DNA of 41,561 nucleotides from a virus (IMGVR_UViG_3300033067_001666:1-41561), one strand, 5' to 3'; counted from the stretch's first letter, positions 1 to 41,561 are shown. Translations and numbers: made by a program. Notes: generated by a model not told the origin, from the sequence alone.

Positions 1-186
1 CTCACCGCCCTCTCTCTGCCCATGTTGCTCGGGCGATGATGGCGGGGGTGCCGGAGCGGTGAGGGGGGGTATCGGTCGTTGTGAGACCAAGGCTGGTCGC
101 TGCAAGCGAGTACGATGGGCATGGAAAAGCCCAGGCGCTGCTGTCACAGCCCTGGGCGTGGACGAAGCCACCAAGGAGGCTCCGAC

Positions 187-663
187 ATGTCCAACGGTAC
201 CGCAACGAAAGTTGATCTGCTGTGCGTCTATTGCGGCTGGGACGCTGACTCGGTCGACCACGTCTTGCCCAGGGCATGGACGGGTAACGCTGCCCGGCCT
301 CACGTCCCAACGGTGCCGGCGTGTCGTGACTGCAACTCTCGGATCGGCGACCATCATGCGCCGACATTGGCTGAGCGCCGGGCGCTGGCCTATGAGTCGT
401 TGGAACGCAAGTCCCGCAAGCTTCTTCGGAACCCGTCTTGGACTGACGACGAGATGGCCGAGCTCGGCCCGCATCTGCGTCACGAGCTCGAGTGCCGCGA
501 GGCGAAGCGTCGCATGGTCAAGTACCGGTTGGACAACCTTGCGCGCGACGAGGATGACCCGGTGTTGGACTGGCTGCTGCATTGTGCCGCGTACGGCGAC
601 AACTTCGCCGCCCGCATCTTGGACAGGAAGCAGGCCGCGCAGCTGGCCGCTCGGGTGCTGTAG
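187..663 (+). CDS. HNH endonuclease (packaging-associated position)
   Basis: CVYCG..DHVLP..VPACRDCN HNH/Zn motifs; AAGGAGG RBS before ATG 187; directly upstream of terminase genes. Confidence 0.85.
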   Translation: MSNGTATKVDLLCVYCGWDADSVDHVLPRAWTGNAARPHVPTVPACRDCNSRIGDHHAPTLAERRALAYESLERKSRKLLRNPSWTDDEMAELGPHLRHELECREAKRRMVKYRLDNLARDEDDPVLDWLLHCAAYGDNFAARILDRKQAAQLAARVL

Positions 664-14682: not shown

Positions 14683-15210
14683 ATGGCTTGGACATCGCCG
14701 GCAACGTGGTCGGTAGGGGAGGTCCCTACCGCCGCCAAGATGAACGCCCACATCCGAGACAACCTGGTCGACCTCGGGCAGCCGGGCGTCGGCTACCTGA
14801 CGTTCTCGTCTACCCAGTCGTTCCCGACGTCGGGCGGCACGGAGACGTACACGCAGCTTGCGTTCGATTCGATGCCGATCACCAAGAACTGTCACGTGAC
14901 ATCGAACCGGTTCTATGTCGACCAGGCCGGCACCTGGGAGTTCTGTGCGATGATCCGCTGGCCTTCCACCGCGTCGGCAAACGCGTCGTCTCTGCGGTGG
15001 GCGAAGATCTACGCGAACGGGTCGGCGACCGACTACCGAGACATCCGGTTCAACTTCCAGAACTTCGACACGATCTGCACGGTGGTCACCGGGCCGATCA
15101 CCCTGAGCTCGGGGGCGTATGTCGATCTGCGAGGCGCCCAGTCGCACGGCTCGAACCTGACGCTCACGTCGGCCGGGACCTACCTGTACGGGCGGATCGT
15201 GTACCGATGA
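14683..15210 (+). CDS. minor tail/tail fibre protein
   Basis: MAWTSPATWSVGEVPTAAKMNAHIRDN N-terminus; beta-rich C-terminus; AGGAG RBS. Confidence 0.7.
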   Translation: MAWTSPATWSVGEVPTAAKMNAHIRDNLVDLGQPGVGYLTFSSTQSFPTSGGTETYTQLAFDSMPITKNCHVTSNRFYVDQAGTWEFCAMIRWPSTASANASSLRWAKIYANGSATDYRDIRFNFQNFDTICTVVTGPITLSSGAYVDLRGAQSHGSNLTLTSAGTYLYGRIVYR

Positions 15211-15264
15211 GTGCGCTTGCCTGGTCGATGTGGCAAGTACGATGGTCATGAAAGGTGGTGGGCG

Positions 15265-15576
15265 ATGGCTTCTTATTCTCTGACCGTTGGCGGTCGGCCG
15301 TCCGGGGTGCACAAGACGTTGTCGGGCACGACAGCGGACACGGTCACCGTTACGAGCACGACGACGTCCTCTCGAGGGCAGGTGATCAACCGTTCGTCGG
15401 CCGCTATCTACCTGCGGTTCGATGGGTCTGCGGCGGTTGCCGCTGCTGACGGGACGGTGGTGTTGCCGGCCGGGCTGGTGTACGAGTGGTTCATCGGGTC
15501 AGGCACCGCGACGGTGAGCGTGGTCGGTTCCGGTGACGCCTATTCGGTGCAGGCTTCGCCGTACGGGAGCTGGTGA
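15265..15576 (+). CDS. small beta-rich structural protein
   Basis: Thr/Ser/Val rich, INRSSAAIYLRFDG; in tail operon. Confidence 0.55.
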   Translation: MASYSLTVGGRPSGVHKTLSGTTADTVTVTSTTTSSRGQVINRSSAAIYLRFDGSAAVAAADGTVVLPAGLVYEWFIGSGTATVSVVGSGDAYSVQASPYGSW

Positions 15577-15580
15577 GCCG

Positions 15581-17290
15581 ATGCGCTCACGTGGCGCTTA
15601 CAGCGGCGCCTATTCGGGCGTGTACCTGCCGGGTGGCCCGGCGTACAGCGGCCAGTACTCGGGGAACACGTTCTCCCCGGCGGCGCTCGCCCCGTACGCC
15701 TGGTATGACGCCGAGCTCGGCCAGCCGAAGAACGTCGGGTATGTCGAGCTGACCGGCGTGTCTGGCGACTACGTGTTCACTCCCGATTCGGCGGGTCTGT
15801 CGTTCTCCAACGACATCGAGGTCGTGATGCGAGTCCGGGTGACGGACTGGACCGCGGCGGCGAACCAGACGCTGTGCGGGAAGTACGTGACGACCGGGAA
15901 CCAGCGGTCGTGGCGGTTCTACGTGTCGACCACCGGAGCTATCGTGCTGACAGCGTCAGCGAACGGAACTGCGGTGACGAGTGTGACGGTGACCCCGACG
16001 GTGGCGTTCACCGATGGCGCGTGGATCTGGCTGCGGTTGCGGTTGGATCTGACCAACGGCGCGAACTCGGTGGGCACGGTCGAAACAGCGGCGGACACCG
16101 GATCCAATGTCGAGCCGTCGTCGTGGACTGCGAACGGTACGGCGACCGGGACGACGATCGCCGGGGTGTTCGACGGTACGGCGGCGTTGGAGATCGGCAC
16201 GTTCCAGTCGGGGACGTCGGAGCGGCTTGCTGGGCGTGTGGGCCGGTGCATTGTGCGCAGCGGGTTCGCCGGGTCGACGGGCGCCGATTTCAACGCCGAT
16301 GACTGCTACCTCGATGGGGTCACCGATTCGGTTGGGAACGTGTGGTCTGTCGCCAACGCGAAGGTGTATGACCGGTCAGCGAACGCTCGGGCGGCGGTTG
16401 TGAACGCGTCGGGCAGCAACGCGGCGGCGCCGTTGTCGTGGCGTGGCGTGCCGTCCGTCCACATTGAGGCAGCGGGAGCGGGCATCAATGGCGTGTCGTG
16501 CACCGCTCCCGCTGGCACTGCGTCGTACTCGGCGGTCCCACGTGACGGCGGTTCACCTTCCACGGGGGTGGCGGCTCCCGGAGCGTTCTCGTTTACTACC
16601 GCAGGGGACTGGCAGTACGTAAGCCTGTTGAACGGTTCCGCCGTGGAAGTGGCGCGGTATGCACCGGCGTCAAGCACCCAGGCCGGCCATACCGACAGTT
16701 ATGGCGTGGTGTGGGCGGTGGACCGCGGGACGTCGGGCCGCAAGTCGGTTGTGCAGTCCCACGCCGCCACGTCGGCCCGTTCGGTGTTTCTGCTCGGGAC
16801 CGATGACTACCTCACGGTGCCGGCCGCCGCCGTGCCGCCCATGGCGGCGTCCGACGCTGCGACGATTCTTGTTGTCGGGCGCACGTGGGGTACGCCGCCG
16901 TCTCTTGGCTGTTTCTTTCATTTCGGGCAATCAGGCGGCGCCCTGCCCCTCCTTCTGCTGCGCGAGAACGGGGGTGGCCCTACCCTGCAATCGTTCATCC
17001 AGGACGGCTCGGGTTCGGCGTTTGCGTATGCGTCGTTCACCAATTCTCAGCGTTTCGTGATCGGCGTTGCCTTGGCTGCCGCCACCGTGAGATCAATCGC
17101 GAACAGCAACGAAGCTTCCGCAGCGCGCGGCGGTGTAGCGATTTCCCCGGCATCTCCCGTCGCGACTATCGGCGCATACGCCGGGAGCGCCTACCAGGAT
17201 TTCGAATGGGAAGCCGTGCTCACGTTCAGCCGGGCGCTCACCGCCAGCGAGATCGGGCAGATCGTCGCCTACTACCGAGGCGCCGCATGA
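15581..17290 (+). CDS. tail-associated protein with LamG-like domains (candidate receptor-binding protein)
   Basis: YAWYDA, QRSW, LEIG, FSRALTASEI motifs; 569 aa Gly/Ser/Thr rich. Confidence 0.65.
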   Translation: MRSRGAYSGAYSGVYLPGGPAYSGQYSGNTFSPAALAPYAWYDAELGQPKNVGYVELTGVSGDYVFTPDSAGLSFSNDIEVVMRVRVTDWTAAANQTLCGKYVTTGNQRSWRFYVSTTGAIVLTASANGTAVTSVTVTPTVAFTDGAWIWLRLRLDLTNGANSVGTVETAADTGSNVEPSSWTANGTATGTTIAGVFDGTAALEIGTFQSGTSERLAGRVGRCIVRSGFAGSTGADFNADDCYLDGVTDSVGNVWSVANAKVYDRSANARAAVVNASGSNAAAPLSWRGVPSVHIEAAGAGINGVSCTAPAGTASYSAVPRDGGSPSTGVAAPGAFSFTTAGDWQYVSLLNGSAVEVARYAPASSTQAGHTDSYGVVWAVDRGTSGRKSVVQSHAATSARSVFLLGTDDYLTVPAAAVPPMAASDAATILVVGRTWGTPPSLGCFFHFGQSGGALPLLLLRENGGGPTLQSFIQDGSGSAFAYASFTNSQRFVIGVALAAATVRSIANSNEASAARGGVAISPASPVATIGAYAGSAYQDFEWEAVLTFSRALTASEIGQIVAYYRGAA

Positions 17291-17610
17291 CCACCATCAC
17301 CACCTCCATAGCCGCAGTCGACGCCATCCAACGCATCCCCCTCGAATGCTGGCGCGGGCCCTACGACGACCCCAACGGCTACCCCAACTACCCCGTGTGG
17401 GTCGACACTGCCGGCGCCCCCGTCGACACTCTCGACGACGCCACCCACGCCCTATGGGACGGCGCATTCGGCGCGCTCACCGCCCGCCTCATCGCCGCCA
17501 TCGGCGCCGACCCAACCCGAATCCCCGCCGACACCACCACACTCGACCGTGCCGCCCTCCTCGAGCTCTACCCCGCAGTCGCCATCGAACCCAACCAGGT
17601 GACGCCGTGA
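17287..17610 (+). CDS. hypothetical protein
   Basis: ATGA overlap with upstream gene; high-GC3 codons. Confidence 0.55.
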   Translation: MTTITTSIAAVDAIQRIPLECWRGPYDDPNGYPNYPVWVDTAGAPVDTLDDATHALWDGAFGALTARLIAAIGADPTRIPADTTTLDRAALLELYPAVAIEPNQVTP

Positions 17611-17987
17611 AACTGCATGCCGCCACCATCGAAGACGCCCGCAACGCCCGACGCGCCCGCCCCACCATCGGCCAGCGCATCCCCCAACCCGTCGACCAGC
17701 AAGGCGCCACCCCCGCCCTCTGGTCCGACTGCGTCGCCTACGTGGTCGACGACGACCCGGCCGCCACCGCCGACGACCAGGACCTCATCGCAGCTGTCGC
17801 CGCCGCCCCCGGCAAGCTCCGCCCCGCCGACGGCAACCCCGCCAAGATCAGGGCACGGCTCGCCGCTGAGATCGCCAAGGCCAAGAGCGACCGTGAGGCT
17901 GGCAAGAAGATCGGCCGCGACAAACCGAAAGACCGCGACGCCGAAGACCCGAAGTCTGGTGGCGGCAAAACCAAGGCAGGGCGGTAG
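17607..17987 (+). CDS. hypothetical protein
   Basis: GTGA overlap; Lys/Arg/Asp-rich C-terminus. Confidence 0.55.
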   Translation: MKLHAATIEDARNARRARPTIGQRIPQPVDQQGATPALWSDCVAYVVDDDPAATADDQDLIAAVAAAPGKLRPADGNPAKIRARLAAEIAKAKSDREAGKKIGRDKPKDRDAEDPKSGGGKTKAGR

Positions 17988-18302
17988 ATGGCAACCGTCA
18001 CCAACACCGTCAAACTCCCAGACGGCACGACCCCCAGCCGGGTTGATGTCACGATCGAGCTGGTGACCTCTGCTCACGTGCGCACGTCCGGGTGGGTCAC
18101 GGCCAACGGGAACACGGTGTTGTCAGCGGCCCGCCCGACGGTGACGGCTGGCGTGTGGTCGGCGGATCTCACGCCGAACGCGAACATCACCCCGGCGGGC
18201 ACGGTGTACAAGGTGACCGAGGTGGCCGACCGGCATAGCTACGTGCATTTCATCTCCGTAGACGCTGACGGCGGAACCTTGTACAGCCTGAGGGAGCCAT
18301 GA
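17988..18302 (+). CDS. hypothetical protein (beta-sandwich, tail-protein N-terminal-like)
   Basis: PDGT..WSADLTPN..PAGTVYKVTE pattern. Confidence 0.55.
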   Translation: MATVTNTVKLPDGTTPSRVDVTIELVTSAHVRTSGWVTANGNTVLSAARPTVTAGVWSADLTPNANITPAGTVYKVTEVADRHSYVHFISVDADGGTLYSLREP

Positions 18303-19108
18303 CCGGGTACTACCTGCTCGACCATCCGAACCCGAACTGTCCTGATCGTGGCGACGGGAAGTATTGGGGCTATGCGGAGATGCAGGGCCAGCCGTTCTTG
18401 ATCGCCGTGCACACGACCGAGTCGTTTGCGGACGAGCTCGGCGAGGACATGGGCGCCGAGAACGTGGCCGCCTACTTCTCGAGGTCGACGACTGCGGCGA
18501 GCTATCACACGATCGTGGACAGTGATTCGACGGTGCGTTGCCTGCCGGCCGGGTTGGATGGGACGACGGTGCACACGGCGTTCCATTGCTACGGCCGCAA
18601 CACGGGGACGCTGGGGATCAGCTTCGCTATGCGGGCGTCTGAGTGGCCTACCGTCTCCCCGGCGTGGGCGACCGCAGCGTTGGAGCGGGCGGCGGATGAG
18701 GTGGCCTTGTGGTGCCGCAGGTGGGATATCCCGGCGCGCCGGGTGTCTCGGGCTGAGGCTGATGCCGGGGTGTCGGGGATCACGGGGCACGGGATTTTGC
18801 AGCCGGAGGATCGTACGGATCCGGGGGCGTCGACGACGTTCGAGCCCAGCTTGTTCCCGTGGGACCGGTTCCTCGGGATGGTCAACGAACGGCTGAACGG
18901 CGAGAAGCCGAAGGCGGAAGGTGAGGAATACATGTTGCAGCACTTCTTGCGGGTGACCGAAGGCGAGCTGAAGGACACCATCTACGCCCGGTACACCACC
19001 GGCGCGCTGGTGCCCATCGCCCCGGAGGAGTTCGACACCGACGGCGGCAAGGTGTCGGTGAAGAACACGACCACCGCCGGTCTGCGGATGGCGTTGAGCA
19101 ACCAGTAG
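18299..19108 (+). CDS. N-acetylmuramoyl-L-alanine amidase (endolysin)
   Basis: IAVHTTE, ASYH, AFH, GITGH..RTDPG..FPW Amidase_2 Zn motifs. Confidence 0.9.
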   Translation: MTGYYLLDHPNPNCPDRGDGKYWGYAEMQGQPFLIAVHTTESFADELGEDMGAENVAAYFSRSTTAASYHTIVDSDSTVRCLPAGLDGTTVHTAFHCYGRNTGTLGISFAMRASEWPTVSPAWATAALERAADEVALWCRRWDIPARRVSRAEADAGVSGITGHGILQPEDRTDPGASTTFEPSLFPWDRFLGMVNERLNGEKPKAEGEEYMLQHFLRVTEGELKDTIYARYTTGALVPIAPEEFDTDGGKVSVKNTTTAGLRMALSNQ

Positions 19109-19118
19109 CTCAAAACCC

Positions 19119-19850
19119 ATGCCGACCCCGTACTACCAAGACGACCAGGTCACCATCTACCACGGGGACGCCTTGGACGTACTCGACGGGTTGGAACACG
19201 CCGACGCCGTCATCACCGACCCGCCCTACGCCAGCGGCACGAGGATGGAAGCAAAGAAGTCTTCCAGCGGGTCCATGCTGCGTGCAGGGCGGTTCGCCGA
19301 CCGGCCGATTGACCTGGACCAGATGACCACCACTGGGTTCGTCTGGCTCATGCGACACGTCGGGATGCACGCCGAACGCATGCTCCCGGACGGCGGGTCA
19401 CTGCTGTGTTTCATCGACTGGCGTCAATGGCCGAACCTCGTCGGGGCGCTCGAAACCTGCAACCTGAGGGTGCAGGGGATGGTCGTGTGGGACAAGGGAA
19501 GCATGGGACTAGGCAACGGCTTCCGTGCCCAGCACGAGCTGATCTGCCACGCCGCCAAGGGGGTGCCCACCATCGCTGACCGCGGCACCGGCAACGTGTT
19601 GCAGTTCGGCCGGGTAGAGCCAACCGATCACCCCAGCCCGAAGCCGACCCCACTCATGAACAAACTTATGCAAGTGGTTACCGAGCCAAGCCAGCTAGTG
19701 GTCGACCCGTTCATGGGTAGCGGTTCGACGTTGCGGGCGGCGAAGGACCTGGGCCGGCGCGCCATCGGGATCGAACGAGACGAGCGCTACTGCGAGATAG
19801 CCGCTGAACGGCTCGGGCAGAACGTGCTCGACTTCGGCGGCGCTGCCTAA
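19119..19850 (+). CDS. DNA amino-methyltransferase (N6A/N4C, beta order)
   Basis: ITDPPY, HPSPKP, VVDPFMGSGST, AIGIE..YCEIA. Confidence 0.95.
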   Translation: MPTPYYQDDQVTIYHGDALDVLDGLEHADAVITDPPYASGTRMEAKKSSSGSMLRAGRFADRPIDLDQMTTTGFVWLMRHVGMHAERMLPDGGSLLCFIDWRQWPNLVGALETCNLRVQGMVVWDKGSMGLGNGFRAQHELICHAAKGVPTIADRGTGNVLQFGRVEPTDHPSPKPTPLMNKLMQVVTEPSQLVVDPFMGSGSTLRAAKDLGRRAIGIERDERYCEIAAERLGQNVLDFGGAA

Positions 19851-19864
19851 CCCGCCGTCTGCCC

Positions 19865-20091
19865 ACTAGTTGCCAACTATCCGCACGACCACCGAGCGTG
19901 GTACGGTCGTGCACCCCCGGGTCCTTTCATGGCCTGTCGTTGTGCGCTGTGCCCTGGTCGCACACCGAACATTTCGGCGATTTCGGGAATCCCATGCGGT
20001 TGCCCATGATCCCGAACTTCATGGCGGCATGCTACATAGCCGCTGGTCAGAGCGCTATTCGACGGGATCCTGACAACTAGTTGCCAACTAG
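19865..20091. other. probable attP / recombination site region
   Basis: non-coding gap; 15-bp direct repeat ACTAGTTGCCAACTA at 19865-19879 and 20076-20090, each palindromic; central inverted repeat TTCGGGA 19982-19988 / TCCCGAA 20010-20016; ~900 bp from integrase. Confidence 0.55.
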
Positions 20092-20156: not shown

Positions 20157-20966
20157 ATGACCACGGCAATCGAATGGACCGACCGCACGTGGAACCCTGT
20201 CACGGGATGCGACCGGACCTCGCCCGGCTGCGACAATTGCTACGCCCTCACCATGGCGAAGCGCCTCAAGGCCATGGGGCAGCCCCGCTACCAGAACGAC
20301 GGCGACCCCCGCACCAGCGGCCCCGGGTTCGGCGTCACCTGCCATCGTGACGTGCTCGACCAGCCGAGACGATGGCGGAAGCCGTCGATGGTGTTCGTCA
20401 ACAGCATGTCCGACCTGTTCCACAAGGACGTGCCGCTCCACTTCATCGGCGACGTGTGGCGGACCATGGCCGCCACACCGCAGCACACCTATCAAGTGCT
20501 CACCAAGCGCCCGCAGCGGTTGGTCGCTGAGATCGGATGGGAGGTTGAGCGAGCACAGCTCTACGGCACCGGTAACAGCTTCGTCGTCGGTGATCCCGAC
20601 GCCGGCTACACGCCCTTGCCGAACGTATGGCTAGGCACGTCAATCGAAAGTGACCGTTACACGTTCCGTGCTGACCACCTACGGGCCACCGCCGCGGCCG
20701 TGCGGTTCCTGTCCTGCGAGCCGCTGCTAGGGCCGTTGCCATCACTCGACCTCACCGCCATCGACTGGGTGATCATCGGGGCCGAGAGCGGCCACGGCGC
20801 GCGGCCGATGAGCAACGACTGGGCGCTGGAAGTCGTCGCCAAGGCTGACGCTGCTGGGTGCGCCGTGTTCGTTAAGCAGCTCAGCGGCGGGGTGCATGCT
20901 GTTAAGGACCTCGCGCAGTTCCCACTCGTCAACTTGCGTCGTCGCGAGTACCCGAAAGCCGCCTGA
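20157..20966 (+). CDS. DUF5131 (phage Gp37/Gp68) radical-SAM-like protein
   Basis: TAIEWTDRTWNPVTGC..SPGCDNCYA, FVNSMSDLFH, LTKRP, RFLSCEPLLG, WVIIGAESG, FVKQ. Confidence 0.92.
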   Translation: MTTAIEWTDRTWNPVTGCDRTSPGCDNCYALTMAKRLKAMGQPRYQNDGDPRTSGPGFGVTCHRDVLDQPRRWRKPSMVFVNSMSDLFHKDVPLHFIGDVWRTMAATPQHTYQVLTKRPQRLVAEIGWEVERAQLYGTGNSFVVGDPDAGYTPLPNVWLGTSIESDRYTFRADHLRATAAAVRFLSCEPLLGPLPSLDLTAIDWVIIGAESGHGARPMSNDWALEVVAKADAAGCAVFVKQLSGGVHAVKDLAQFPLVNLRRREYPKAA

Positions 20967-22105
20967 TGCCCGCTCCTAAGCGCCGTCCGCAAGGCTCCGG
21001 CGGCCTGCGTAAGCGTGGCGACCGGTGGCAGTCCTCCGTCGTTGACCCGCGCACCGGGCGCACGCTGTGGCACACGTGGCCGGCCGGGACGACACGCCGC
21101 CAAGCGGAACATAACCACCAGGAATGGTCGGCGGAGATTAGCAAAAGGCGACCGGCCGACCGCACCGTTACCGTCGCCGCCTACCTCACGTCGTGGCTTG
21201 GGATCCGCCAGGCCGACATGACCCCGGCCACCCACGCCCGCCACGCCGCCAACGCCCGGGTCCTCGAGCGCGAGATCGGCGGGGTCCGTTTGGCCGAGCT
21301 CGACCCGCTCGCCCTCACCGAAACGTTCGCCGTGCTCGCCCGCACCTACAGCCCTGCGTCGGTCAAGTCACTACGCGCCACCGCTAACGCGGCGCTCGGC
21401 GACGCTGTCCGCTGGGAGCGGCTGCCGTCGAACCCGATGACCGCCGTACGCCTCCCCAGGCCCCCGGCGAAGCAGGACCGGGCGACCCCGACAACCGAGC
21501 AGGTGCACGCCCTGTGCGCCACGGAGACGGACGATCTGTGGCGTGGGGTGTGGGAGGTGTTGGCCGGGACCGGCGCGCGCCCGGGCGAGGTGCTGGCCCT
21601 GCACTGGCGTGACGTGGACCTGCGGAAAGGCACCGTGCAGATCGGCCGCACCCTCACCCAGAACGGGCGGCGCACGGTCATGGGGGATACGACGAAGACC
21701 CGGCGCGCACGACGTATCGCCATCGACCCGCACCTTGTGAGCGTGCTCACCGCCTGGCGGAGGACGCTACGCGACGAGGAACTGGCGCGCGCCGGTAAGG
21801 ATGCCCCGTTGTTTCCGTCGCCGCTTTCAGGGTCGGGTGTGGTGTCTCAGGGTGCGTTGGCCGCTAGGTTCCGGGCTGGGATGCGTCGTGTCGGGGCGGA
21901 TGAGAACATCACCCCGCACGCGGTGCGGCACTGGTTCATCTCGACGTGGATGGCGCAGGGTTGGCCACCACAGACGATTGCCGCTCACTGCGGGAACTCG
22001 ATCGAACAGGTGATGCAGCGCTACGGGGTCCACGCCCCGGACCACGCTTTGGCTGAGGTGGCGGCGAGAATGCCGGCACGAAACAAGGAGACAAGTAATG
22101 CATGA
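20966..22105 (+). CDS. int: tyrosine integrase
   Basis: TGARPGEVLAL (R), TKT (K), HAVRH (HxxR), CGNS..RY (Y); basic N-terminal arm region. Confidence 0.9.
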   Translation: MPAPKRRPQGSGGLRKRGDRWQSSVVDPRTGRTLWHTWPAGTTRRQAEHNHQEWSAEISKRRPADRTVTVAAYLTSWLGIRQADMTPATHARHAANARVLEREIGGVRLAELDPLALTETFAVLARTYSPASVKSLRATANAALGDAVRWERLPSNPMTAVRLPRPPAKQDRATPTTEQVHALCATETDDLWRGVWEVLAGTGARPGEVLALHWRDVDLRKGTVQIGRTLTQNGRRTVMGDTTKTRRARRIAIDPHLVSVLTAWRRTLRDEELARAGKDAPLFPSPLSGSGVVSQGALAARFRAGMRRVGADENITPHAVRHWFISTWMAQGWPPQTIAAHCGNSIEQVMQRYGVHAPDHALAEVAARMPARNKETSNA

Positions 22106-23652: not shown

Positions 23653-23928
23653 GTGACCGCCGTTAGCGAACCATTCGACCCGGCCGACATCCAACGGCGG
23701 CTCACCGAACTCGAAGCGCTTCTCAAGCCCCACCAGTTCGACCGCTGGCACCCGCTCCGCCGGGCGTCTGACCTCACCGGCATTCCCAAGGGCACGCTCC
23801 AGTACTGGATCCGCACGCACCGGATCGCCCGAGACACGGACTGCCGCAAGCTCCGCGGCATGTGGTTCATCAACCCCGCATGGGTCGCCTCACAAGCGGC
23901 CCTCAACCCCCGAAAGGACACCGCATGA
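23653..23928 (+). CDS. excisionase/Cro-like HTH protein
   Basis: LRRASDLTGIPKGTLQYWIR..RGMWFI MerR/Xis-type HTH; start uncertain (GTG 23632 or 23653). Confidence 0.7.
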   Translation: MTAVSEPFDPADIQRRLTELEALLKPHQFDRWHPLRRASDLTGIPKGTLQYWIRTHRIARDTDCRKLRGMWFINPAWVASQAALNPRKDTA

Positions 23929-24515
23929 CGCCCACCATCGACATCCACGCCGTACTCGTCGCCCACAAACTGTGGCTCCAAGGAAACCCCGAAGGCCGCC
24001 GCGCCGACCTCACCGGCGCCTACCTCACCGGCGCCAACCTTGCCGGCGCCAACCTTGCCGGCGCCTACCTCACCCGCGCCTACCTCACCGGCGCCAACCT
24101 TGCCGGCGCCTACCTCACCCGCGCCAACCTCACCGGCGCCAACCTTGCCGGCGCCAACCTTGCCGGCGCCAACCTTGCCGGCGCCTACCTCACCCGCGCC
24201 AACCTCACCGGCGCCGACCTCACCGGCGCCAACCTCACCCGCACCGACCTCACCGGCGCCAACCTCACCCGCACCGACCTCGCCGGCACGTGCGTGTCGC
24301 TGCTGCTTGGCGACGACGGACGCTGTTATCGGGTGGTCGCCCATCGCGGGCTGCTGTCCGACGGTGAACCGGTCTATCTGGCCGGGTGCCGCAAGCTCTC
24401 CATCGTCGGCGCACGCGCCCACTGGTCGAACCCCGACCACCCAGACCGGGCCGCTGCGGCCCGGATCCTTGCCGCGATCGAAACTCACCAAGCAGCCCTC
24501 AACCCCCGCAAGTAA
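23925..24515 (+). CDS. pentapeptide repeat protein
   Basis: 19 tandem [AT][NDY]L[TA][GR] units; AAAGGA RBS. Confidence 0.92.
24003..24287 (+). repeat. 19 x 15-bp coding tandem repeat
   Basis: units such as GCCAACCTTGCCGGC / GCCTACCTCACCCGC. Confidence 0.95.
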
Positions 24516-27019: not shown

Positions 27020-27052
27020 GAAGACCCCCAGCCAAACCGGCCGGGGGTCTTC
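27020..27052. terminator. hairpin terminator between convergent operons
   Basis: GAAGACCCCC / GGGGGTCTTC 10-bp stem, extended by GCC/GGC, followed by GCTTTG. Confidence 0.7.
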
Positions 27053-27067: not shown

Positions 27068-27289
27068 TCAGTTCTTGGGTGGGTTGATCGCGTTCCACAC
27101 GGCCTGGCGGGACACGTTCAACCGTCTCGCCGTTTCGGACATCCCGATCGCATCGACAAGCGCTTGCAGCACCTCACGCCGCTCCTCAGCAAGCCCGCCG
27201 ATCGCCGACCTGTGATCAGCCATCGCCTGGCGGATCGCCCGTTCCTTGTCCATCAAGGCGGTCACGATGTCCTCACCCGCCTCTGCCAT
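27068..27289 (-). CDS. small HTH DNA-binding protein
   Basis: GMSETARRLNVSRQAVWNA HTH after a coiled-coil. Confidence 0.7.
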   Translation of the reverse strand: MAEAGEDIVTALMDKERAIRQAMADHRSAIGGLAEERREVLQALVDAIGMSETARRLNVSRQAVWNAINPPKN

Positions 27290-27311
27290 AACACCCGACG
27301 ATAGCCCACCC

Positions 27312-27731
27312 CTAACCGCCGATCTGCAACGTCGGACCGAGATGCACCGGGATCTGCGGGGCCGGCTCGAGCTCCATGCCCGCAGGCTTCTGCGGCTCGA
27401 TCGGAGACCCGTCGCACGACTTGCGCTGCCAGCACGTCGAGTACCGGCCTTTGACCTTCGGGCCGTACTTCGCAGCCCCGTACGCCGCAGCACCAACCGC
27501 CCCGGCCGCGAGAACCTTCGACGACCCGATACCCGACGCTGCGCCCTTCCCTGCCGCCTCTGCGGCACTGTCGATCGTGTCGCCGACCTGCGCCGCACCG
27601 AGCTCGGCCGACCGGTTAAGCGTCGCCTTTCCATCGATCGACCCGTCCTTGTTGGTGACGATCCCGCCGTTCATGCCGCCCACCGCAAGGACTGCGACGA
27701 TGACAACTCCGGCCGTTCTCATTGCGCTCAT
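27312..27731 (-). CDS. membrane/secreted Gly-Ala-rich protein
   Basis: hydrophobic N-terminus, second hydrophobic GxxxA-rich stretch; AGGAG RBS. Confidence 0.65.
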   Translation of the reverse strand: MSAMRTAGVVIVAVLAVGGMNGGIVTNKDGSIDGKATLNRSAELGAAQVGDTIDSAAEAAGKGAASGIGSSKVLAAGAVGAAAYGAAKYGPKVKGRYSTCWQRKSCDGSPIEPQKPAGMELEPAPQIPVHLGPTLQIGG

Positions 27732-28132
27732 CTACCTACTCCTGCTCGAGGCCAATGAGCCGGGAACGGCGCGCCGTGACCGACCCTTGACCACCACTCT
27801 TCGGGCGTGTCGTCGCCCTTCGATGAATTGCACGAGATGCACGCCGGCACCCGGTTCCCCGGGCCGTCGTCACCCCCACGGGACCACGGGTACACGTGGT
27901 CCCAGGCGTCCGCCGGGCGGCCGCAGTACGTGCACTGGTAGAACCTTGACGGCCCCGCAACCCTGGTCATCGACACCCGCTTGCGGGCCACCCCGAGCAC
28001 CGCGTCCTTGCCTGCGCCAAGCCACAACAACGGCAGCGACACGAACAAGGCGACGGTGATAGCGGTGTACCGGCCTGCCATGGCGAGGCAGGCGAGCGGG
28101 AACACGACGGCGAAAACGTGGCGGGGTTTCAT
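27728..28132 (-). CDS. membrane-anchored HNH endonuclease
   Basis: two N-terminal hydrophobic segments, then CTYCG..DHVYPWSRGG..NRVPACISCNSSKG. Confidence 0.8.
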   Translation of the reverse strand: MKPRHVFAVVFPLACLAMAGRYTAITVALFVSLPLLWLGAGKDAVLGVARKRVSMTRVAGPSRFYQCTYCGRPADAWDHVYPWSRGGDDGPGNRVPACISCNSSKGDDTPEEWWSRVGHGAPFPAHWPRAGVGR

Positions 28133-28136
28133 GGTT

Positions 28137-29168
28137 CTATCCTGCCAACTCGATGTGCCATGGCTCGTGTCCGTAGGGGAACACCAGCCCGAATGCCTTG
28201 GCGTTGTCGTGTGCCCACGACTCCACGTCGGCGGTGCTGAAAATGAGGTCGGCGGCAAGGCCATCGCAGTGCTTCGATTCGCACGTGGTGCCATCCGACC
28301 AAGACGCCGGGTTGCCGGCGCCAGACAGGTACTTGTTGTACAGGTCGAGCTGTTGGCCGGGGTCACGGAACCCTGACCGCACCGTGATACCACCCGGAGC
28401 GGCTGCCATCAGAGCGTCGAGTTTCGCCCCGAACGTCGGGTCCAAACGGTCCGCCCGAGCCTGCCGTGCAACCGGCGCTGCGGCCTGATCAGACCCGAAC
28501 AACGTGTCGTCAACGGCGCGCCAGGCGCCGTCTGCGCCGACCAGATCGGAGGCGTCGCCGACCCTGACCCACCCTCGAATGACCACGTTCCACACGCTCT
28601 CCCCCAGCTTCCTGGGGGTGCGCTGCTTGCCTTCGGTCGCTTCGATGATGAACGGTTCGGCCCGGTCGTACGTGGCGATATCGGCCATCACGTCGTCGGC
28701 GTACCCGTCCTGATCGGCGCCGTAGTAGGCGACAACAGCCGAGCGGAGGTGGTCGCCGAGCACGTCGCCGTGGGTGCCGCACAGGTGGCGGACGGTTGCC
28801 TGTGCGGCATCGTCGATGTCCTGCGGGTTGCCGCCCTTGCCGTAGATCGCCCACGAGGTGGGCATGAATTGGCCCGGGCCTTCGGCCTGTGCGCCGCCCA
28901 TCCAGTTGACCGGCGGCCCGTAGATCGCCGGTCGGGCGACTCCGTCAGCGTCGAGTGCGGCCCCGCCGTGGGAGGCGTGCCCGGACTCTTTCCGGTAGAT
29001 AGCGGCGAGGATCGGCCAGCGCATCCCAGGGCAGGCGTCGGGGCTCTCGACGGCCTGCACGTATGCGGTGAGGGCGCGCTGAGGGATGCCTTCGACACCG
29101 CCGGGGATCGGCACTGCGCCGGCCCCGACACCGATAGCGGCGGCTGCCACATGGGAGCGCAAACCCAT
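28137..29168 (-). CDS. two-domain peptidoglycan hydrolase: lytic transglycosylase + M15 Zn peptidase
   Basis: WPILAAIYRKES..AEGPGQFMPTSW..YG (lysozyme-like); SGFRD..Q..SKH..GLAAD..EPWHIE (M15/VanY-like). Confidence 0.85.
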   Translation of the reverse strand: MGLRSHVAAAAIGVGAGAVPIPGGVEGIPQRALTAYVQAVESPDACPGMRWPILAAIYRKESGHASHGGAALDADGVARPAIYGPPVNWMGGAQAEGPGQFMPTSWAIYGKGGNPQDIDDAAQATVRHLCGTHGDVLGDHLRSAVVAYYGADQDGYADDVMADIATYDRAEPFIIEATEGKQRTPRKLGESVWNVVIRGWVRVGDASDLVGADGAWRAVDDTLFGSDQAAAPVARQARADRLDPTFGAKLDALMAAAPGGITVRSGFRDPGQQLDLYNKYLSGAGNPASWSDGTTCESKHCDGLAADLIFSTADVESWAHDNAKAFGLVFPYGHEPWHIELAG

Positions 29169-29389
29169 CAGGCAGCGACCCCCCGACTAGCGAGGCTGGT
29201 CCGCACCCGCGACACCCATTCGAGGATCGCGTTGCAGTGGTCGACCACGACGGTCAGATCGCCGTAGAACTCGTACGGGTCGGAGTTCTCGCCGTTTTCG
29301 AACAGGCTGTGCACCTGGTGCAGCATCCGGATGTTCTCGCCGTACTCGTCGAGCTCGCTGGGCGCAAGGTGGAGGCGTACGTCGGCCAT
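29168..29389 (-). CDS. hypothetical protein
   Basis: 73 aa, TGATG coupling on both sides. Confidence 0.6.
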   Translation of the reverse strand: MADVRLHLAPSELDEYGENIRMLHQVHSLFENGENSDPYEFYGDLTVVVDHCNAILEWVSRVRTSLASRGVAA

Positions 29390-29679
29390 CAGTTGCCCTC
29401 CAGCGGGGTCGTCGGCAACGTCTCCTCCGTCGCCTCGGGCACTGCCACCGCAGCACCGAACCCGGACATGGCGTTGCGCGCCCCAGCGGCAATCGGTTCG
29501 GTCGCCGACAGGGTCTCACCGCCCAGGATCCCGGCTCCCTGCACCACCGGCACAGCCCCGTTCACGGTCGCCTCCACGGTCTGCGAGGCGGTGCCCGGGT
29601 TGCGTGCCTCGCCGATAGCGAGCGCCACCGCGAACCCGACAGCACCGACCCCGATGGATCTCACTACGCCTTTAGCCAC
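29389..29679 (-). CDS. small membrane protein
   Basis: N-terminal hydrophobic helix SIGVGAVGFAVALAIG; AAGGAG RBS. Confidence 0.65.
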   Translation of the reverse strand: MAKGVVRSIGVGAVGFAVALAIGEARNPGTASQTVEATVNGAVPVVQGAGILGGETLSATEPIAAGARNAMSGFGAAVAVPEATEETLPTTPLEGN

Positions 29680-31058
29680 TTGGCTTCTCCTTTGTATCCC
29701 GCCGTTTGAGCGGCGATCTTGCGGGGCTCTTTCGGCCCCAAGAACAGCGAACGGGAACGCGTCGCGCGCCGGTCAACCCGCACGAACATGCCGCCGTTCA
29801 ACGACTCCGGGATCGTCTGGCAGGGGGCGATATCGACGCTGTCGCCCATGATCATCGTGGCCTGCTGCAACGACTCGCAGCCCATCCCGATACGCACCCG
29901 ACAGTTGTCCCGCACCTCGGTGGACATCGCCTCGTGAGACGGACGCTGCGTCGCCAGCACCGTCCCAATCCCGGCGGCCCGGCCCATCGACAAGATCAGC
30001 TCGAGCCGCTGCTCGCGTTCGGTGCGTTCCTTCGGGGTGCCGATCCGGCGCAACGCACCGATCTCGTCGACCACCAAAACGATCCGCTTGCCGTCAGCGT
30101 CAGCCCACTCGACCTGGTCCTCTGGCATCGCCTCGTAGCGGCGCATCATCTCGTGGTAGACGGCGTCGAAAGCCTTGCCGGTCGCCTCCGGGCCACGGGC
30201 TACATGCGCTCGTTCGGCCCAGCCACGGAACTCGACCATCTTCGGGTCGCACAGCACGAGCTCGACGTCAGGGCAGTGCGCCATCTCGGCGATCAGCACC
30301 CGCAACAGGACGCTCTTGCCGCCTCCGGTGCTGCCCCCGATGAGCACGTGCCGGCCGTCCGAACCGGGCCACGGGATAGCCGCTGGCGCGCCGGTCGCAT
30401 CGAACCCGATCGTGATGTCACGACCCGCCTTGAGGGTCGACGGGCCGGGCCACGGGCGCACGTCGTACAGCCGGTCCCACGGGCCGTGCCGTTCGTCGTC
30501 GAGCACCAGTTTCGAGCGGCCCAACACGTCGGTGGCGAGCAGCGTGGCGTCCCCGGTTTGCAGGGCCTGGCCGACCAGTTCCGGTTCGATCTTGCCGGTG
30601 TGATCCACCTCGAGTTCCCACCCGGTCGCGGTCTTCTGCGCGCCCCGCACCCGGGCGTTGTCGTGGGTCGAGTGCACAGCGTTGTACGCCCGGTTCCGTT
30701 CTTTGTGCAACGCAAGCACGGCAGACAAAGGCTGCCCTCCGGTCTTGCCGTAGTCCCACCAGAGGTAGGCGAGCAGCGCAGCGAACACGACCGGGACGGT
30801 GATGGTGTACCGCCATTCCGGGACCAGCTTCCACAGCACCACGAACGCGACGGCGGATATGCCGAGCACGCTCATGGCGACGACGGTGATGGCGTCCTTG
30901 CGGTTCTTCCACAGCCACGTGACAACGGCGAACATGCCGACCAGACCGACGGCGGTGTTGCCCATCGCCATGACGTTCTTGCGGGCCTGCCGGCGGAACC
31001 AGCCGGTGACCCACAGCACGCCGAACAAGGCCGGGATGAGCGGCATGAGACGGTCCAT
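29664..31058 (-). CDS. FtsK/SpoIIIE-family DNA translocase (Tra-like) with N-terminal TM helices
   Basis: about 4 TM segments; HVLIGGSTGGGKS Walker A, DPKMVE, EMMRRY, VVDE Walker B, GRAAGI..LATQRP. Confidence 0.9.
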   Translation of the reverse strand: MDRLMPLIPALFGVLWVTGWFRRQARKNVMAMGNTAVGLVGMFAVVTWLWKNRKDAITVVAMSVLGISAVAFVVLWKLVPEWRYTITVPVVFAALLAYLWWDYGKTGGQPLSAVLALHKERNRAYNAVHSTHDNARVRGAQKTATGWELEVDHTGKIEPELVGQALQTGDATLLATDVLGRSKLVLDDERHGPWDRLYDVRPWPGPSTLKAGRDITIGFDATGAPAAIPWPGSDGRHVLIGGSTGGGKSVLLRVLIAEMAHCPDVELVLCDPKMVEFRGWAERAHVARGPEATGKAFDAVYHEMMRRYEAMPEDQVEWADADGKRIVLVVDEIGALRRIGTPKERTEREQRLELILSMGRAAGIGTVLATQRPSHEAMSTEVRDNCRVRIGMGCESLQQATMIMGDSVDIAPCQTIPESLNGGMFVRVDRRATRSRSLFLGPKEPRKIAAQTAGYKGEAKWLKA

Positions 31059-31061
31059 CTG

Positions 31062-31793
31062 TCAGCCGGCCGCCACGCTCGTCGGTGTCGGATCCTGCGG
31101 GGTTTCGACCACGTTCGGGGCGGTCTCCATGCCGTCGAACTCGCAGTTGAACAGCCGCACCCCAGCGGACGAATCGTCGGCCACGACACGCAACGTGCCA
31201 AGCGTCGGGGCGACAAGACGAAGGTCGACGATACGGAACGAGGTAAGCAACGCTGACGCCTGCTGCTCGAGCGGCGTGGCGCGCTCGATGTTCACGGTGC
31301 GACCGCCGGTGTCAGGGTCGCCGCCGATCATCTGTTTCGCCTCGTTGGTGAGCTGGCAGCCTCGCACCCACGAGAACGGGGTCGGCACAGCGATCTGTGT
31401 CTGCGAGTTCTTCGCAAGGTTGAGCTCGGCGCGCACCTTGTCGACCGCCGCGCTTGTCGCGTAGTCGGCGATTGCCTGCTCGTTCGGCGGGGCTGGCATG
31501 AACATGCGGGTGGCGATCACGTTGACGGCGACGAGGACTGCGATGCCGCCGATGACCTTGTAGCGGCCGGGCTGGGCGGCGATGGAGTCGGCGAACCCGC
31601 CTGCAACTCGCTTTGCCCACTTCGCCAGACCTGGTTTGACCGGCGGAGGCGGGGGAGGAGGGGGCTGCGGGATGCCGTTGATGGCGTCCGGGAGGGGCGG
31701 AGCCCCGACCTTTGCCCCGGTCCTTCGGACTTCGTCGCTTCGGTCCGGGGCAAGTGTAGCGTCCGTGTCAAGGCGTGGGTGTACGGCTGTCAC
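31062..31793 (-). CDS. bitopic membrane protein with Pro-rich N-terminus
   Basis: poly-Pro run, one TM (VIGGIAVLVAVNVIA), downstream domain with two Cys; GAGGAG RBS. Confidence 0.7.
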   Translation of the reverse strand: MTAVHPRLDTDATLAPDRSDEVRRTGAKVGAPPLPDAINGIPQPPPPPPPPVKPGLAKWAKRVAGGFADSIAAQPGRYKVIGGIAVLVAVNVIATRMFMPAPPNEQAIADYATSAAVDKVRAELNLAKNSQTQIAVPTPFSWVRGCQLTNEAKQMIGGDPDTGGRTVNIERATPLEQQASALLTSFRIVDLRLVAPTLGTLRVVADDSSAGVRLFNCEFDGMETAPNVVETPQDPTPTSVAAG

Positions 31794-31987
31794 TGGCTGT
31801 TCTCCTCTTTGGCGCTGACACCGGAGACGTGGACGGACCATTCAGCTGCTCGGGGGTACCAGGCTGAAGTCACTTGATCGATCTCGAACTGCTCGTCGCC
31901 GAAGGCTTCGGCGACCTTGGCCCGAGCCTCGTTCTCGGCACGCTGCCGGTCCACGTTGCGTGCAGACGCGTGCGCTAAACGCTTCAC
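31790..31987 (-). CDS. hypothetical protein
   Basis: GTGA coupling at both ends; AAGGA RBS. Confidence 0.55.
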   Translation of the reverse strand: MKRLAHASARNVDRQRAENEARAKVAEAFGDEQFEIDQVTSAWYPRAAEWSVHVSGVSAKEENSQ

Positions 31988-32193
31988 TTCGCGTCCTTGG
32001 CCTTGCGACCCGGCCGAGCAATCGGGGCGGGCCTGGTGGACGGCACGAGCTGCTGCCGGAGCATGGCGACTGCCTCGTTGAGGAGGTCGTCGGTCGGGCG
32101 TCCGGTCAGGGTCTCGAGGGCCTTGACGTGCTTGACGGCGGTGGGGTCGATGGCGATGGCGTCGCCCGACTCGGATCGGTACTGGGTGTCCAT
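31984..32193 (-). CDS. small protein, possible ribbon-helix-helix regulator
   Basis: IAIDP..LETLTGRPTDDLLNEAVAML pattern; first gene of the reverse operon. Confidence 0.5.
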   Translation of the reverse strand: MDTQYRSESGDAIAIDPTAVKHVKALETLTGRPTDDLLNEAVAMLRQQLVPSTRPAPIARPGRKAKDAK

Positions 32194-32201
32194 ATTGGTC
32201 A

Positions 32202-32268
32202 ACTGTACACCGAGGGGTTGACGCATGTCCAGGGCGGGGTGTACACCGTGTATATTGCAATCGACGGC
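32202..32268. promoter_or_regulatory. divergent promoter/operator region of the reverse operon
   Basis: minus strand TGGACA(32231-32226)-18bp-TACAGT(32207-32202), 8 nt before ATG 32193 (leaderless-type); TGTACACCG at 32204 and 32240; GTATATTGCAA at 32250. Confidence 0.5.
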
Positions 32269-41161: not shown

Positions 41162-41561
41162 GTGAACACCGACCTGAGGGACAGGGGCCGGCCGTGGGGC
41201 CGCACCGTGCTCGCCGCCTACGAACGCGACAGCTGGACCTGCCGGCGCTGCCACAGGCCCGTGCACCTCACCCGCACCTGCCCTCGCCGTGGCTGCGACC
41301 TGTGCGCCCACGGCGACCACGTGGTGGGGGTGGCAGCAGCACGGGCGATGGGCTGGTCTCGAGCGCAGGTCAACGAGCTCGACAACGTGATCGCCTCATG
41401 CCGTCGCTGCAACCTCACCAGGGCAGCTCAGCAACGGAGCCATGCGAGGCGCCTGGCCGCCCGCCGCAGGGTACAGGGGGGGGTACCAGGCGTACGGGTG
41501 GGGGTACACGCCCTCGATGGCCCCGGGGGGGCCGAAAAGTCTGACCAGGACCCTGGGAGAC
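41162..41561 (+). CDS. HNH endonuclease (no stop before window end; absent from ORF track)
   Basis: manual translation: ERDSWTCRRC..GDHVV..DNVIASCRRCN; frame open to the last base. Confidence 0.8.
   Translation, partial: MNTDLRDRGRPWGRTVLAAYERDSWTCRRCHRPVHLTRTCPRRGCDLCAHGDHVVGVAAARAMGWSRAQVNELDNVIASCRRCNLTRAAQQRSHARRLAARRRVQGGVPGVRVGVHALDGPGGAEKSDQDPGR
41476..41561. other. probable packaging (cos-like) region continuing into position 1
   Basis: G-runs, CCCCGGGGGGG and GAAAAGT at the end, CTCTCTCT near position 10; lies between HNH and terS. Confidence 0.45.

Follow-up and report, generated by a model that had tools for sequence, protein, structure and literature searches.

The virus genome IMGVR_UViG_3300033067_001666:1-41561 carries an operon of ten minus-strand open reading frames (ORFs), M1 to M10, that occupies positions 27068-32193 and interrupts the plus-strand early region (Table 1). 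The window, meaning the whole stretch of DNA that was analyzed, is the entire 41,561-bp virus record, which has no end repeat. We describe the operon by its gene content, intact catalytic motifs, motor lineage, conservation, and residence in phage DNA, and then consider what it might do. An initial annotation had described ten packed and mostly coupled reverse-strand ORFs at this place, and this description holds: 6 of the 9 junctions overlap (-4, -4, -16, -1, -1, and -4 nucleotides [nt]), the remaining gaps measure 3, 4, and 22 nt, and the codon-position G+C is coding-like (0.67/0.51/0.83) and equal to that of the phage’s own genes. Hydrophobic segments occur in M3, M4, M5, M7, M8, and M9. 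The annotated FtsK/SpoIIIE ATPase, transglycosylase-M15 hydrolase, and membrane-anchored HNH protein were all recovered by domain and homologue searches, as was, weakly, the helix-turn-helix (HTH) protein, and the hydrophobic segments in M3, M5, and M9 agree with the annotated proline-rich bitopic protein, small membrane protein, and Gly/Ala-rich membrane protein. The ribbon-helix-helix fold suggested for M1 was not recovered, as neither Pfam nor the PDB gave a match.

Table 1. Features of the operon and of the surrounding phage genome (aa, amino acids; TM, transmembrane segment; L numbers are our handles for loci with related genes).
Feature	Position	Strand	Properties
M1, 69 aa	31984..32193	-	Conserved first gene, likely autoregulator; 52-81% identity, 5 sequences
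M2, 65 aa	31790..31987	-	Accessory; in L007, L009, L016; not in L010, L014, L019, L039
M3, 243 aa, bitopic membrane protein	31062..31793	-	Pro-rich N-terminus, TM 80-98, C-terminal domain
M4, 464 aa, Tra-lineage FtsK-like ATPase	29664..31058	-	N-terminal membrane helices, short alpha domain, intact Walker A/B and QR motif
M5, 96 aa	29389..29679	-	N-terminal TM, then Gly/Ala-rich; dN/dS 0.10-0.37, among the most constrained
M6, 73 aa	29168..29389	-	Soluble, likely helical; variable slot
M7, 343 aa, wall hydrolase	28137..29168	-	Hydrophobic N-terminus, SLT_2/MltB-like transglycosylase (E61), M15 peptidase (R268, H300, D307, E335, H338)
M8, 134 aa, HNH nuclease after two hydrophobic segments	27728..28132	-	CxxC, DH, N, CxxCN invariant in 4/4
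M9, 139 aa	27312..27731	-	N-terminal TM, then Gly/Ala-rich; 72-81% identity
M10, 73 aa	27068..27289	-	Coiled coil and weak HTH; last gene in 4/4 complete copies, 34-47% identity
Overlapping divergent promoter candidates	32202..32247	.	Scanner hit and conservation at 7 loci; putative function
G+C-rich hairpin, likely terminator	27020..27052	.	Visible in the sequence; between the convergent operon and early genes
Tyrosine integrase	20966..22105	+	Phage likely temperate
Amidase endolysin	18299-19108		Separate from the operon
HNH-motif ORF	41162-41560	+	Right end of the window; read by eye

The motor protein M4 matches the Pfam family FtsK_SpoIIIE (E 4e-17). All 15 aligned sequences share its Walker A K/S, Walker B DE, QR motif, and R389, and 14 of them keep R360. 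The structure model (predicted local distance difference test [pLDDT] 71) comprises N-terminal helices, a short alpha domain, and a RecA fold ending in a single helix; the gamma domain of chromosomal FtsK is not present in it. In three trees the M4 family clusters with pIJ101 Tra, pSG5 TraB, pJV1 TraB, pWTY27 Tra, and related rows, with support of 96/98 (56 rows), 97/96 (35 rows), and 90/97 (29 rows, pIJ101 left out and EccC included); TraSA and pSVH1 TraB were not included in the trees, and pZL12.71 was omitted from the later two. Approximately unbiased (AU) tests reject a grouping of M4 with chromosomal FtsK (p 4e-5), with the TcpA group (p 0.0013), and with EccC (p 0.0066). Since actinobacterial chromosomal FtsK and a protein from cluster J mycobacteriophages group with FtsK, apart from M4, high G+C is insufficient to explain the grouping with Tra. 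Among NCBIfam models, plasmid_TraB scores best (E 2.9e-16). In the tree comparison of these ATPases that the initial annotation had called for, M4 groups with the actinomycete Tra/TraB lineage and not with FtsK, TcpA, or EccC. The M4 alleles are mosaic (P0007 and P0014 versus P0003, P0006, and P0009): P0007 resembles P0003 at 98-100% over its membrane portion but P0009 at 94-98% over the motor, which points to recombination between cassettes, or else to chimeric assembly. A separate FtsK-like family of approximately 350-370 aa forms its own clade, with several members on viral contigs (L002-L006, L021-L027, and L033-L038).

Two further enzymes are encoded downstream of the motor. The VanY/M15 match of M7 (E 1.6e-4) lies below the Pfam cut-off, and its N-terminal domain is called SLT_2/MltB-like through its homologues. 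The transglycosylase glutamate is kept in 21 of 21 homologues and the M15 residues R, H, D, and H in all 15 that are of the M15 type; the remaining 6 (P0180, P0183, P0185, P0186, P0188, and P0189, one of them from an Acidimicrobiia metagenome-assembled genome [MAG]) keep the SLT domain and carry M23. Over its full length M7 aligns (28%, E 4e-17) with an Iamia plasmid protein of SLT+M15 type, on a stretch that also has a coupling protein and a MobF relaxase. The 100 plasmid records matching the SLT domain are mostly SLT/C40 hydrolases of Streptomyces plasmids, and the one neighborhood inspected among them is a conjugation operon. On these alignments M7 resembles conjugation-region hydrolases. 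M8 has an HNH domain (Pfam E 1e-8) with an intact zinc-finger HNH in all 4 copies, and its charge distribution suggests that the nuclease domain faces the cytoplasm. Because an endolysin and an HNH at the genome end are encoded elsewhere in the phage, neither lysis nor packaging requires M7 or M8; that M8 might be the terminase HNH was rejected on account of that separate ORF.

M3 belongs to an undescribed family, with no meaningful Pfam match. Its C-terminal domain, which is likely outside the cell, contains two cysteines invariant across 19 close homologues. The homologue search returned 39 hits at the 50% level, three of which, long repetitive proteins, look spurious, and the structure prediction is of low confidence (pLDDT 50). 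Some 30 distant homologues (P0118-P0150) have 16-42% identity; one of them, P0122, and the M7 homologue P0190 share a contig count of 3 and a longest contig of 6512, a hint that the cassette family may be wider. Between M3 and M4, L007 (2145-2255) and L010 (812-931) have one more short ORF, which is hydrophobic. The M6 slot holds a same-size, unrelated-looking protein in L007; M6 was also considered as a WXG100 protein and rejected, there being no Pfam match. M10 has a layout that looks by eye like that of an 80-aa pIJ101 ORF, which we take to be KorB, yet the hhalign probability was 0.6%, and the homology was rejected.

Upstream of M1, the leftward promoter candidate TGGACA-18-TACAGT (32231-32202) ends 8 nt ahead of the ATG, and its transcript would likely be leaderless. 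A rightward candidate, TTGACG (32218-32223) with a -10-like box at 32242-32247, points toward the early genes. The leftward scan found 1 site against 0.5 expected by chance, so that the promoter proposed earlier at 32202-32231 was found again by the scanner but is not significant alone; GTCAA and ACACCCC motifs, however, are invariant in 7 of 7 aligned loci at this region, which we read as two overlapping divergent promoters. The terminator proposed at the other end is similarly divided: the hairpin is visible and has a counterpart 3' of the operon in L007, but it is not clear in L010 or L039 and was not among the calls of a terminator scanner.

The M4 protein search produced 39 hits, namely the window’s own cluster, 14 full-length clusters (56-77% identity), 1 partial, and 23 distant FtsK-family proteins; the loci returned numbered 32 from metagenomes and 3 from genomes, with 12 and 1, respectively, in the close family. 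L007, L010, and L039, each independently assembled, span M3-M10 in a gene order identical to that of the window. Their flanks, on the opposite strand, encode RuvC- and RusA-like resolvases and a PHROG family. Matches to PHROGs were obtained for 4 of the 10 flank or slot proteins tested, and other flank proteins match early genes of the window phage. A relative that is approximately 96-99% identical covers both the head-tail genes and the operon in wastewater runs X2 and X5, from two other studies; in this relative the M6 slot is replaced. One contig from these data bridges the promoter junction with 255 nt on either side, and no single contig in the runs examined reaches from head genes to operon; a further run, X1, may be the sample from which the window came. 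Relatives were found in wastewater and bioreactor metagenomes of three studies. All tested frames are open in 4-5 loci, and pairwise ratios of nonsynonymous to synonymous substitution rates (dN/dS) are 0.10-0.61 for the seven genes M3-M9 and 0.37-1.12 for M1. The search for the same gene order and the dN/dS test suggested by the initial annotation thus both gave positive outcomes, and the operon is an intact, conserved phage module under purifying selection.

A subset of IMG/VR, queried with M4, an M4 alignment, the capsid, M7 and M3 alignments, and two distant M3 homologues, contained no close relative, its matches being distant FtsK loci and one 36% capsid. None of 291 cultured-phage and 1144 plasmid matching records had an M4 match covering 80% of the query, and M3 had no match in plasmids. 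Among 401 class-level and 401 phylum-level genomes, a real copy of M3 occurs in G001 only; the other hits (4 and 41 genomes) are weak and limited to the Pro-rich/TM part.

Compared with the Streptomyces TraB/Tra and Spd systems (pSVH1, pSG5, pJV1, pIJ101, and pWTY27, together with TraSA of pSAM2), the phage operon has a common lineage of FtsK-like motor with N-terminal membrane helices, tightly coupled small membrane proteins, and no relaxase or VirB4. Unlike them, it has no winged helix, no clt array that we could find, no GntR-type TraR, and no RepSA/RepAM, it adds an SLT+M15 hydrolase and a membrane-anchored HNH, and it resides in a tailed phage. The operon resembles a TraB/Spd machine in ancestry and layout yet lacks two of its defining features, and M4, with neither a DNA-recognition domain nor a clt array found, is not a member of TraB. 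The TraB-type analogy drawn by the initial annotation is accordingly sound for the motor lineage and breaks down at substrate recognition. In plasmid pWTY27 an annotated phage major capsid gene (L076:10642-12102) lies next to the tra and serine recombinase genes.

PMC3583192 reports that the Streptomyces plasmid-phage pZL12 conjugates through tra and two adjacent genes, so the idea of a phage conjugating through a Tra protein is already in print and is not new. pZL12 (phage ZL12, NC_013420) is likewise a tailed phage genome with an FtsK/SpoIIIE-like tra in a transfer cluster, but it is a 90-kb extrachromosomal replicon, whereas the window phage is approximately 41.5 kb and has a tyrosine integrase; the pZL12 type is an extrachromosomal prophage with partition and plasmid replication genes, and no match to ParA/ParB was found among the window proteins. 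The 725-aa Tra of pZL12 is not close to M4, and no operon protein matched its neighbors. The Tcp system of Clostridium perfringens pCW3 (TcpA and TcpG) also has a TM-anchored FtsK-like ATPase beside a wall hydrolase and a bitopic protein, but it includes TcpM and a large ATPase, while the phage operon has no relaxase, VirB4-, or VirB6-like gene. Relaxase, VirB4, and the VirB6-like channel of Gram-positive type IV secretion systems (Tn916 type) were found neither among the 10 operon proteins nor among the other called genes; the one trait of these systems that is present is the bifunctional wall hydrolase. Lone FtsK genes of cultured phages (cluster J mycobacteriophages and wp22 of Bacillus phage Wbeta) match part of M4 at 33% identity or less. 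Of these, the protein from cluster J lies inside the chromosomal FtsK group and has no annotated hydrolase/HNH operon around it, and wp22 falls outside the Tra clade.

Integrative and conjugative elements of actinomycetes (AICEs) combine Int, Tra, and RepSA, RepAM, or Prim-pol in one element, as stated in PMC3218068. The window has Int and a Tra-like protein, but a phage-type Rep initiator, no match to RepSA, RepAM, or Prim-pol, and a full head-tail set. That this is not a whole AICE, as had been proposed from the lack of RepSA, relaxase, and a second integrase, agrees with domain scans of the called genes, in which none of these was seen. In contrast to the multi-domain EccC of type VII secretion, M4 has a single ATPase domain, and no WXG100 match was obtained. 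PADLOC returned no full defense gene set, only domain-level matches for M4, M8, and M10. Specific to this phage is that its 41-kb, integrase-bearing genome combines a Tra-lineage motor that has lost the reading domain with a bifunctional hydrolase of conjugation type, an HNH anchored in the membrane, and a bitopic protein of an undescribed family, and that cultured phages and plasmids offer no close relative. A literature search, with most subscription papers outside its coverage, found no description of this type of operon in an integrating phage.

The reading that we favor, at what we judge to be roughly even chances, is that the operon is a prophage-expressed, contact-dependent exporter of phage double-stranded DNA (dsDNA), with the nuclease likely supplying a free end. 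The leaderless leftward promoter, overlapping the rightward early promoter, would be on in the lysogen or around induction, with M1 and/or M10 restraining it. M4 would form a membrane hexamer, M3, M5, and M9 would serve it as channel or spread partners, and M7 would locally open the peptidoglycan. Given that M4 has no domain to read sequence and that no clt was found, DNA would probably be loaded at a free end or nick that M8, facing the cytoplasm, introduces into the excised phage circle, or alternatively through a small DNA-binding adaptor among M1, M2, and M10. FtsK, SpoIIIE, and TraB pump toward their membrane side, and M4 could be expected to do the same. No virion would be involved as the dsDNA entered an adjoining cell, whether a neighbor or, in a chain or filament, the compartment that follows, and the phage’s own recombination and integration genes would re-establish it in the recipient.

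A number of results weigh against this exporter. M4 ends 223 aa past Walker A, compared with 332-398 in four Tra references; from this and the single helix at the end of the model, the C-terminal winged-helix domain is missing. In TraB this domain reads the clt repeats, according to PMC3583192 and PMC4447253. A scan for clustered 7-8-mers found no intergenic cluster of clt-like repeats in or beside the operon; in controls it recovered the pJV1 and pWTY27 clt loci as well as a cluster directly behind pSG5 traB, whereas the pIJ101 clt, made of 5-bp repeats, escaped it, so that the phage may have a clt that is short or degenerate. The NCBIfam match of M4 scores 59.1 bits against a TraB equivalog cut-off of 800, and Foldseek on the M4 model places TcpA, the top match, and FtsK first, with no TraB structure among the hits. 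The M4 trees contain long branches, with pZL12.71 (the pZL12 Tra) outside the clade on such a branch in the 56-row tree, and the tree groups were named after the first tree, two unnamed rows being labeled Tra once it had been seen. Comparing M3, M5, and M9 with the Spd proteins from five reference plasmids revealed no similarity. A search of 401 genomes for an attachment site and host yielded no convincing core. Finally, an active nuclease adjoining a pump could destroy DNA instead of delivering it.

In one rival to this exporter, export is blind to sequence: the HNH would cut the host chromosome, the pump would export fragments, and the prophage would hitch-hike while host genes were mobilized too. 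A Tra-lineage motor with no recognition domain, no clt found, and an HNH intact in all 4 complete copies are what this predicts, but cutting the chromosome would be costly in a lysogen and M1 and M10, as small conserved DNA-binding candidates, could provide specificity, and we consider it unlikely. Equally unlikely in our estimation is a superinfection exclusion or anti-phage membrane complex, in which the motor would engage incoming DNA and the anchored HNH destroy it. An opposite-strand operon with its own promoter is the usual layout of lysogen-expressed genes, and this operon has that orientation and a promoter candidate of its own; a membrane nuclease combined with an ATPase, generic PADLOC matches to MADS8, SspH, and HerA, the variable slots M2 and M6, and the mosaic ATPase alleles would all suit such a role. 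The PADLOC matches, however, are limited to the shared ATPase or HNH domain, 7 of the 10 proteins have none, the motor is of Tra lineage, and a conjugation-type bifunctional wall hydrolase has no clear part to play in exclusion.

Contact-dependent delivery of proteins in the manner of type VII secretion, with M4 exporting small proteins, for instance M6 or the HNH, as toxins that act on non-lysogens, is distinctly improbable: M6 is small, soluble, and in a variable slot, and M4 has weak EccC/EssC matches, but the single ATPase domain, the rejected EccC grouping, the membrane anchor of M8, the lack of a WXG100 Pfam match, and the lack of an evident immunity gene all speak against it. That the operon is a late-acting accessory cassette for lysis or DNA release is more doubtful still, since lysis needs no ATP-driven pump, the phage has its own amidase endolysin, and the operon points away from the late genes, even though both wall-cutting domains of M7 retain their catalytic residues and several small membrane proteins could be holin-like. 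The decaying plasmid/AICE remnant and the chimeric join raised by the initial annotation can find encouragement in the plasmid/AICE-like ancestry of the motor and in the lack of a contig linking head genes to operon in the runs examined, but both fail and are highly improbable because the operon is intact (open frames, phage-like composition), under purifying selection (dN/dS below 1 for M3-M9), and phage-resident, with its promoter junction bridged in other studies’ data and phage-like flanks in independent loci.

Should phage DNA export be confirmed, an integrating tailed phage would gain another way to spread, one independent of a receptor, and a Tra-type motor would be loading DNA even though it lacks the domain for reading clt that is held to be its defining feature. 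Both bear on the question in actinomycete conjugation of how circular dsDNA is loaded and crosses the wall. The operon is small and self-contained, with catalytic residues that are clear to mutate, making a direct test possible. A broader and rather doubtful proposal is that there is a class of integrating “conjugative prophages”, free of relaxase and clt, in which a membrane nuclease makes an end, pumping falls to a Tra-lineage motor that has no recognition domain, and a hydrolase opens the wall. If it were true, such prophages could spread to receptor-less cells or along filaments, possibly with host chromosome, and this would be a gene-exchange route not described so far for Acidimicrobiia. 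Control of actinobacterial populations is of practical weight in the wastewater and bioreactor habitats of the relatives.

The phage that carries the operon has a siphophage gene set of HK97 type (terminase, portal, prohead protease, capsid, tail tube, tape measure, and amidase), as well as a tyrosine integrase, a leftward repressor-like gene, a Holliday junction resolvase, WhiB, RecE/RecT, and a replication initiator (Rep). WhiB and the window G+C of approximately 66% point to an actinobacterial host, and the class may be Acidimicrobiia, as an Acidimicrobiia MAG is the source of the closest relative with a name that any module protein has, and a hydrolase of the same architecture is on the Iamia plasmid. 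An Rfam search gave nothing significant. The right-end HNH is at a position typical of a terminase cofactor of cos phages; with the terminase at the left end, this suggests that the genome is near-complete despite a completeness figure of 44%. A second HNH-motif ORF (115-663, plus strand) lies directly 5' of the terminase region and is perhaps an optional homing endonuclease, because one contig in each of runs X3 and X5 joins 85 to 624, the short side measuring only 30 nt. The block 15200-19900, which includes tail-tip, endolysin, and methyltransferase genes, is uncovered by the close relative in runs X2, X3, and X5, and a contig continues with different sequence at 15161, making the block a likely swapped module. 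In the early region, a pentapeptide-repeat gene (23925-24515, plus strand) is replaced in the X2/X5 relative and is found upstream of the operon in L014.

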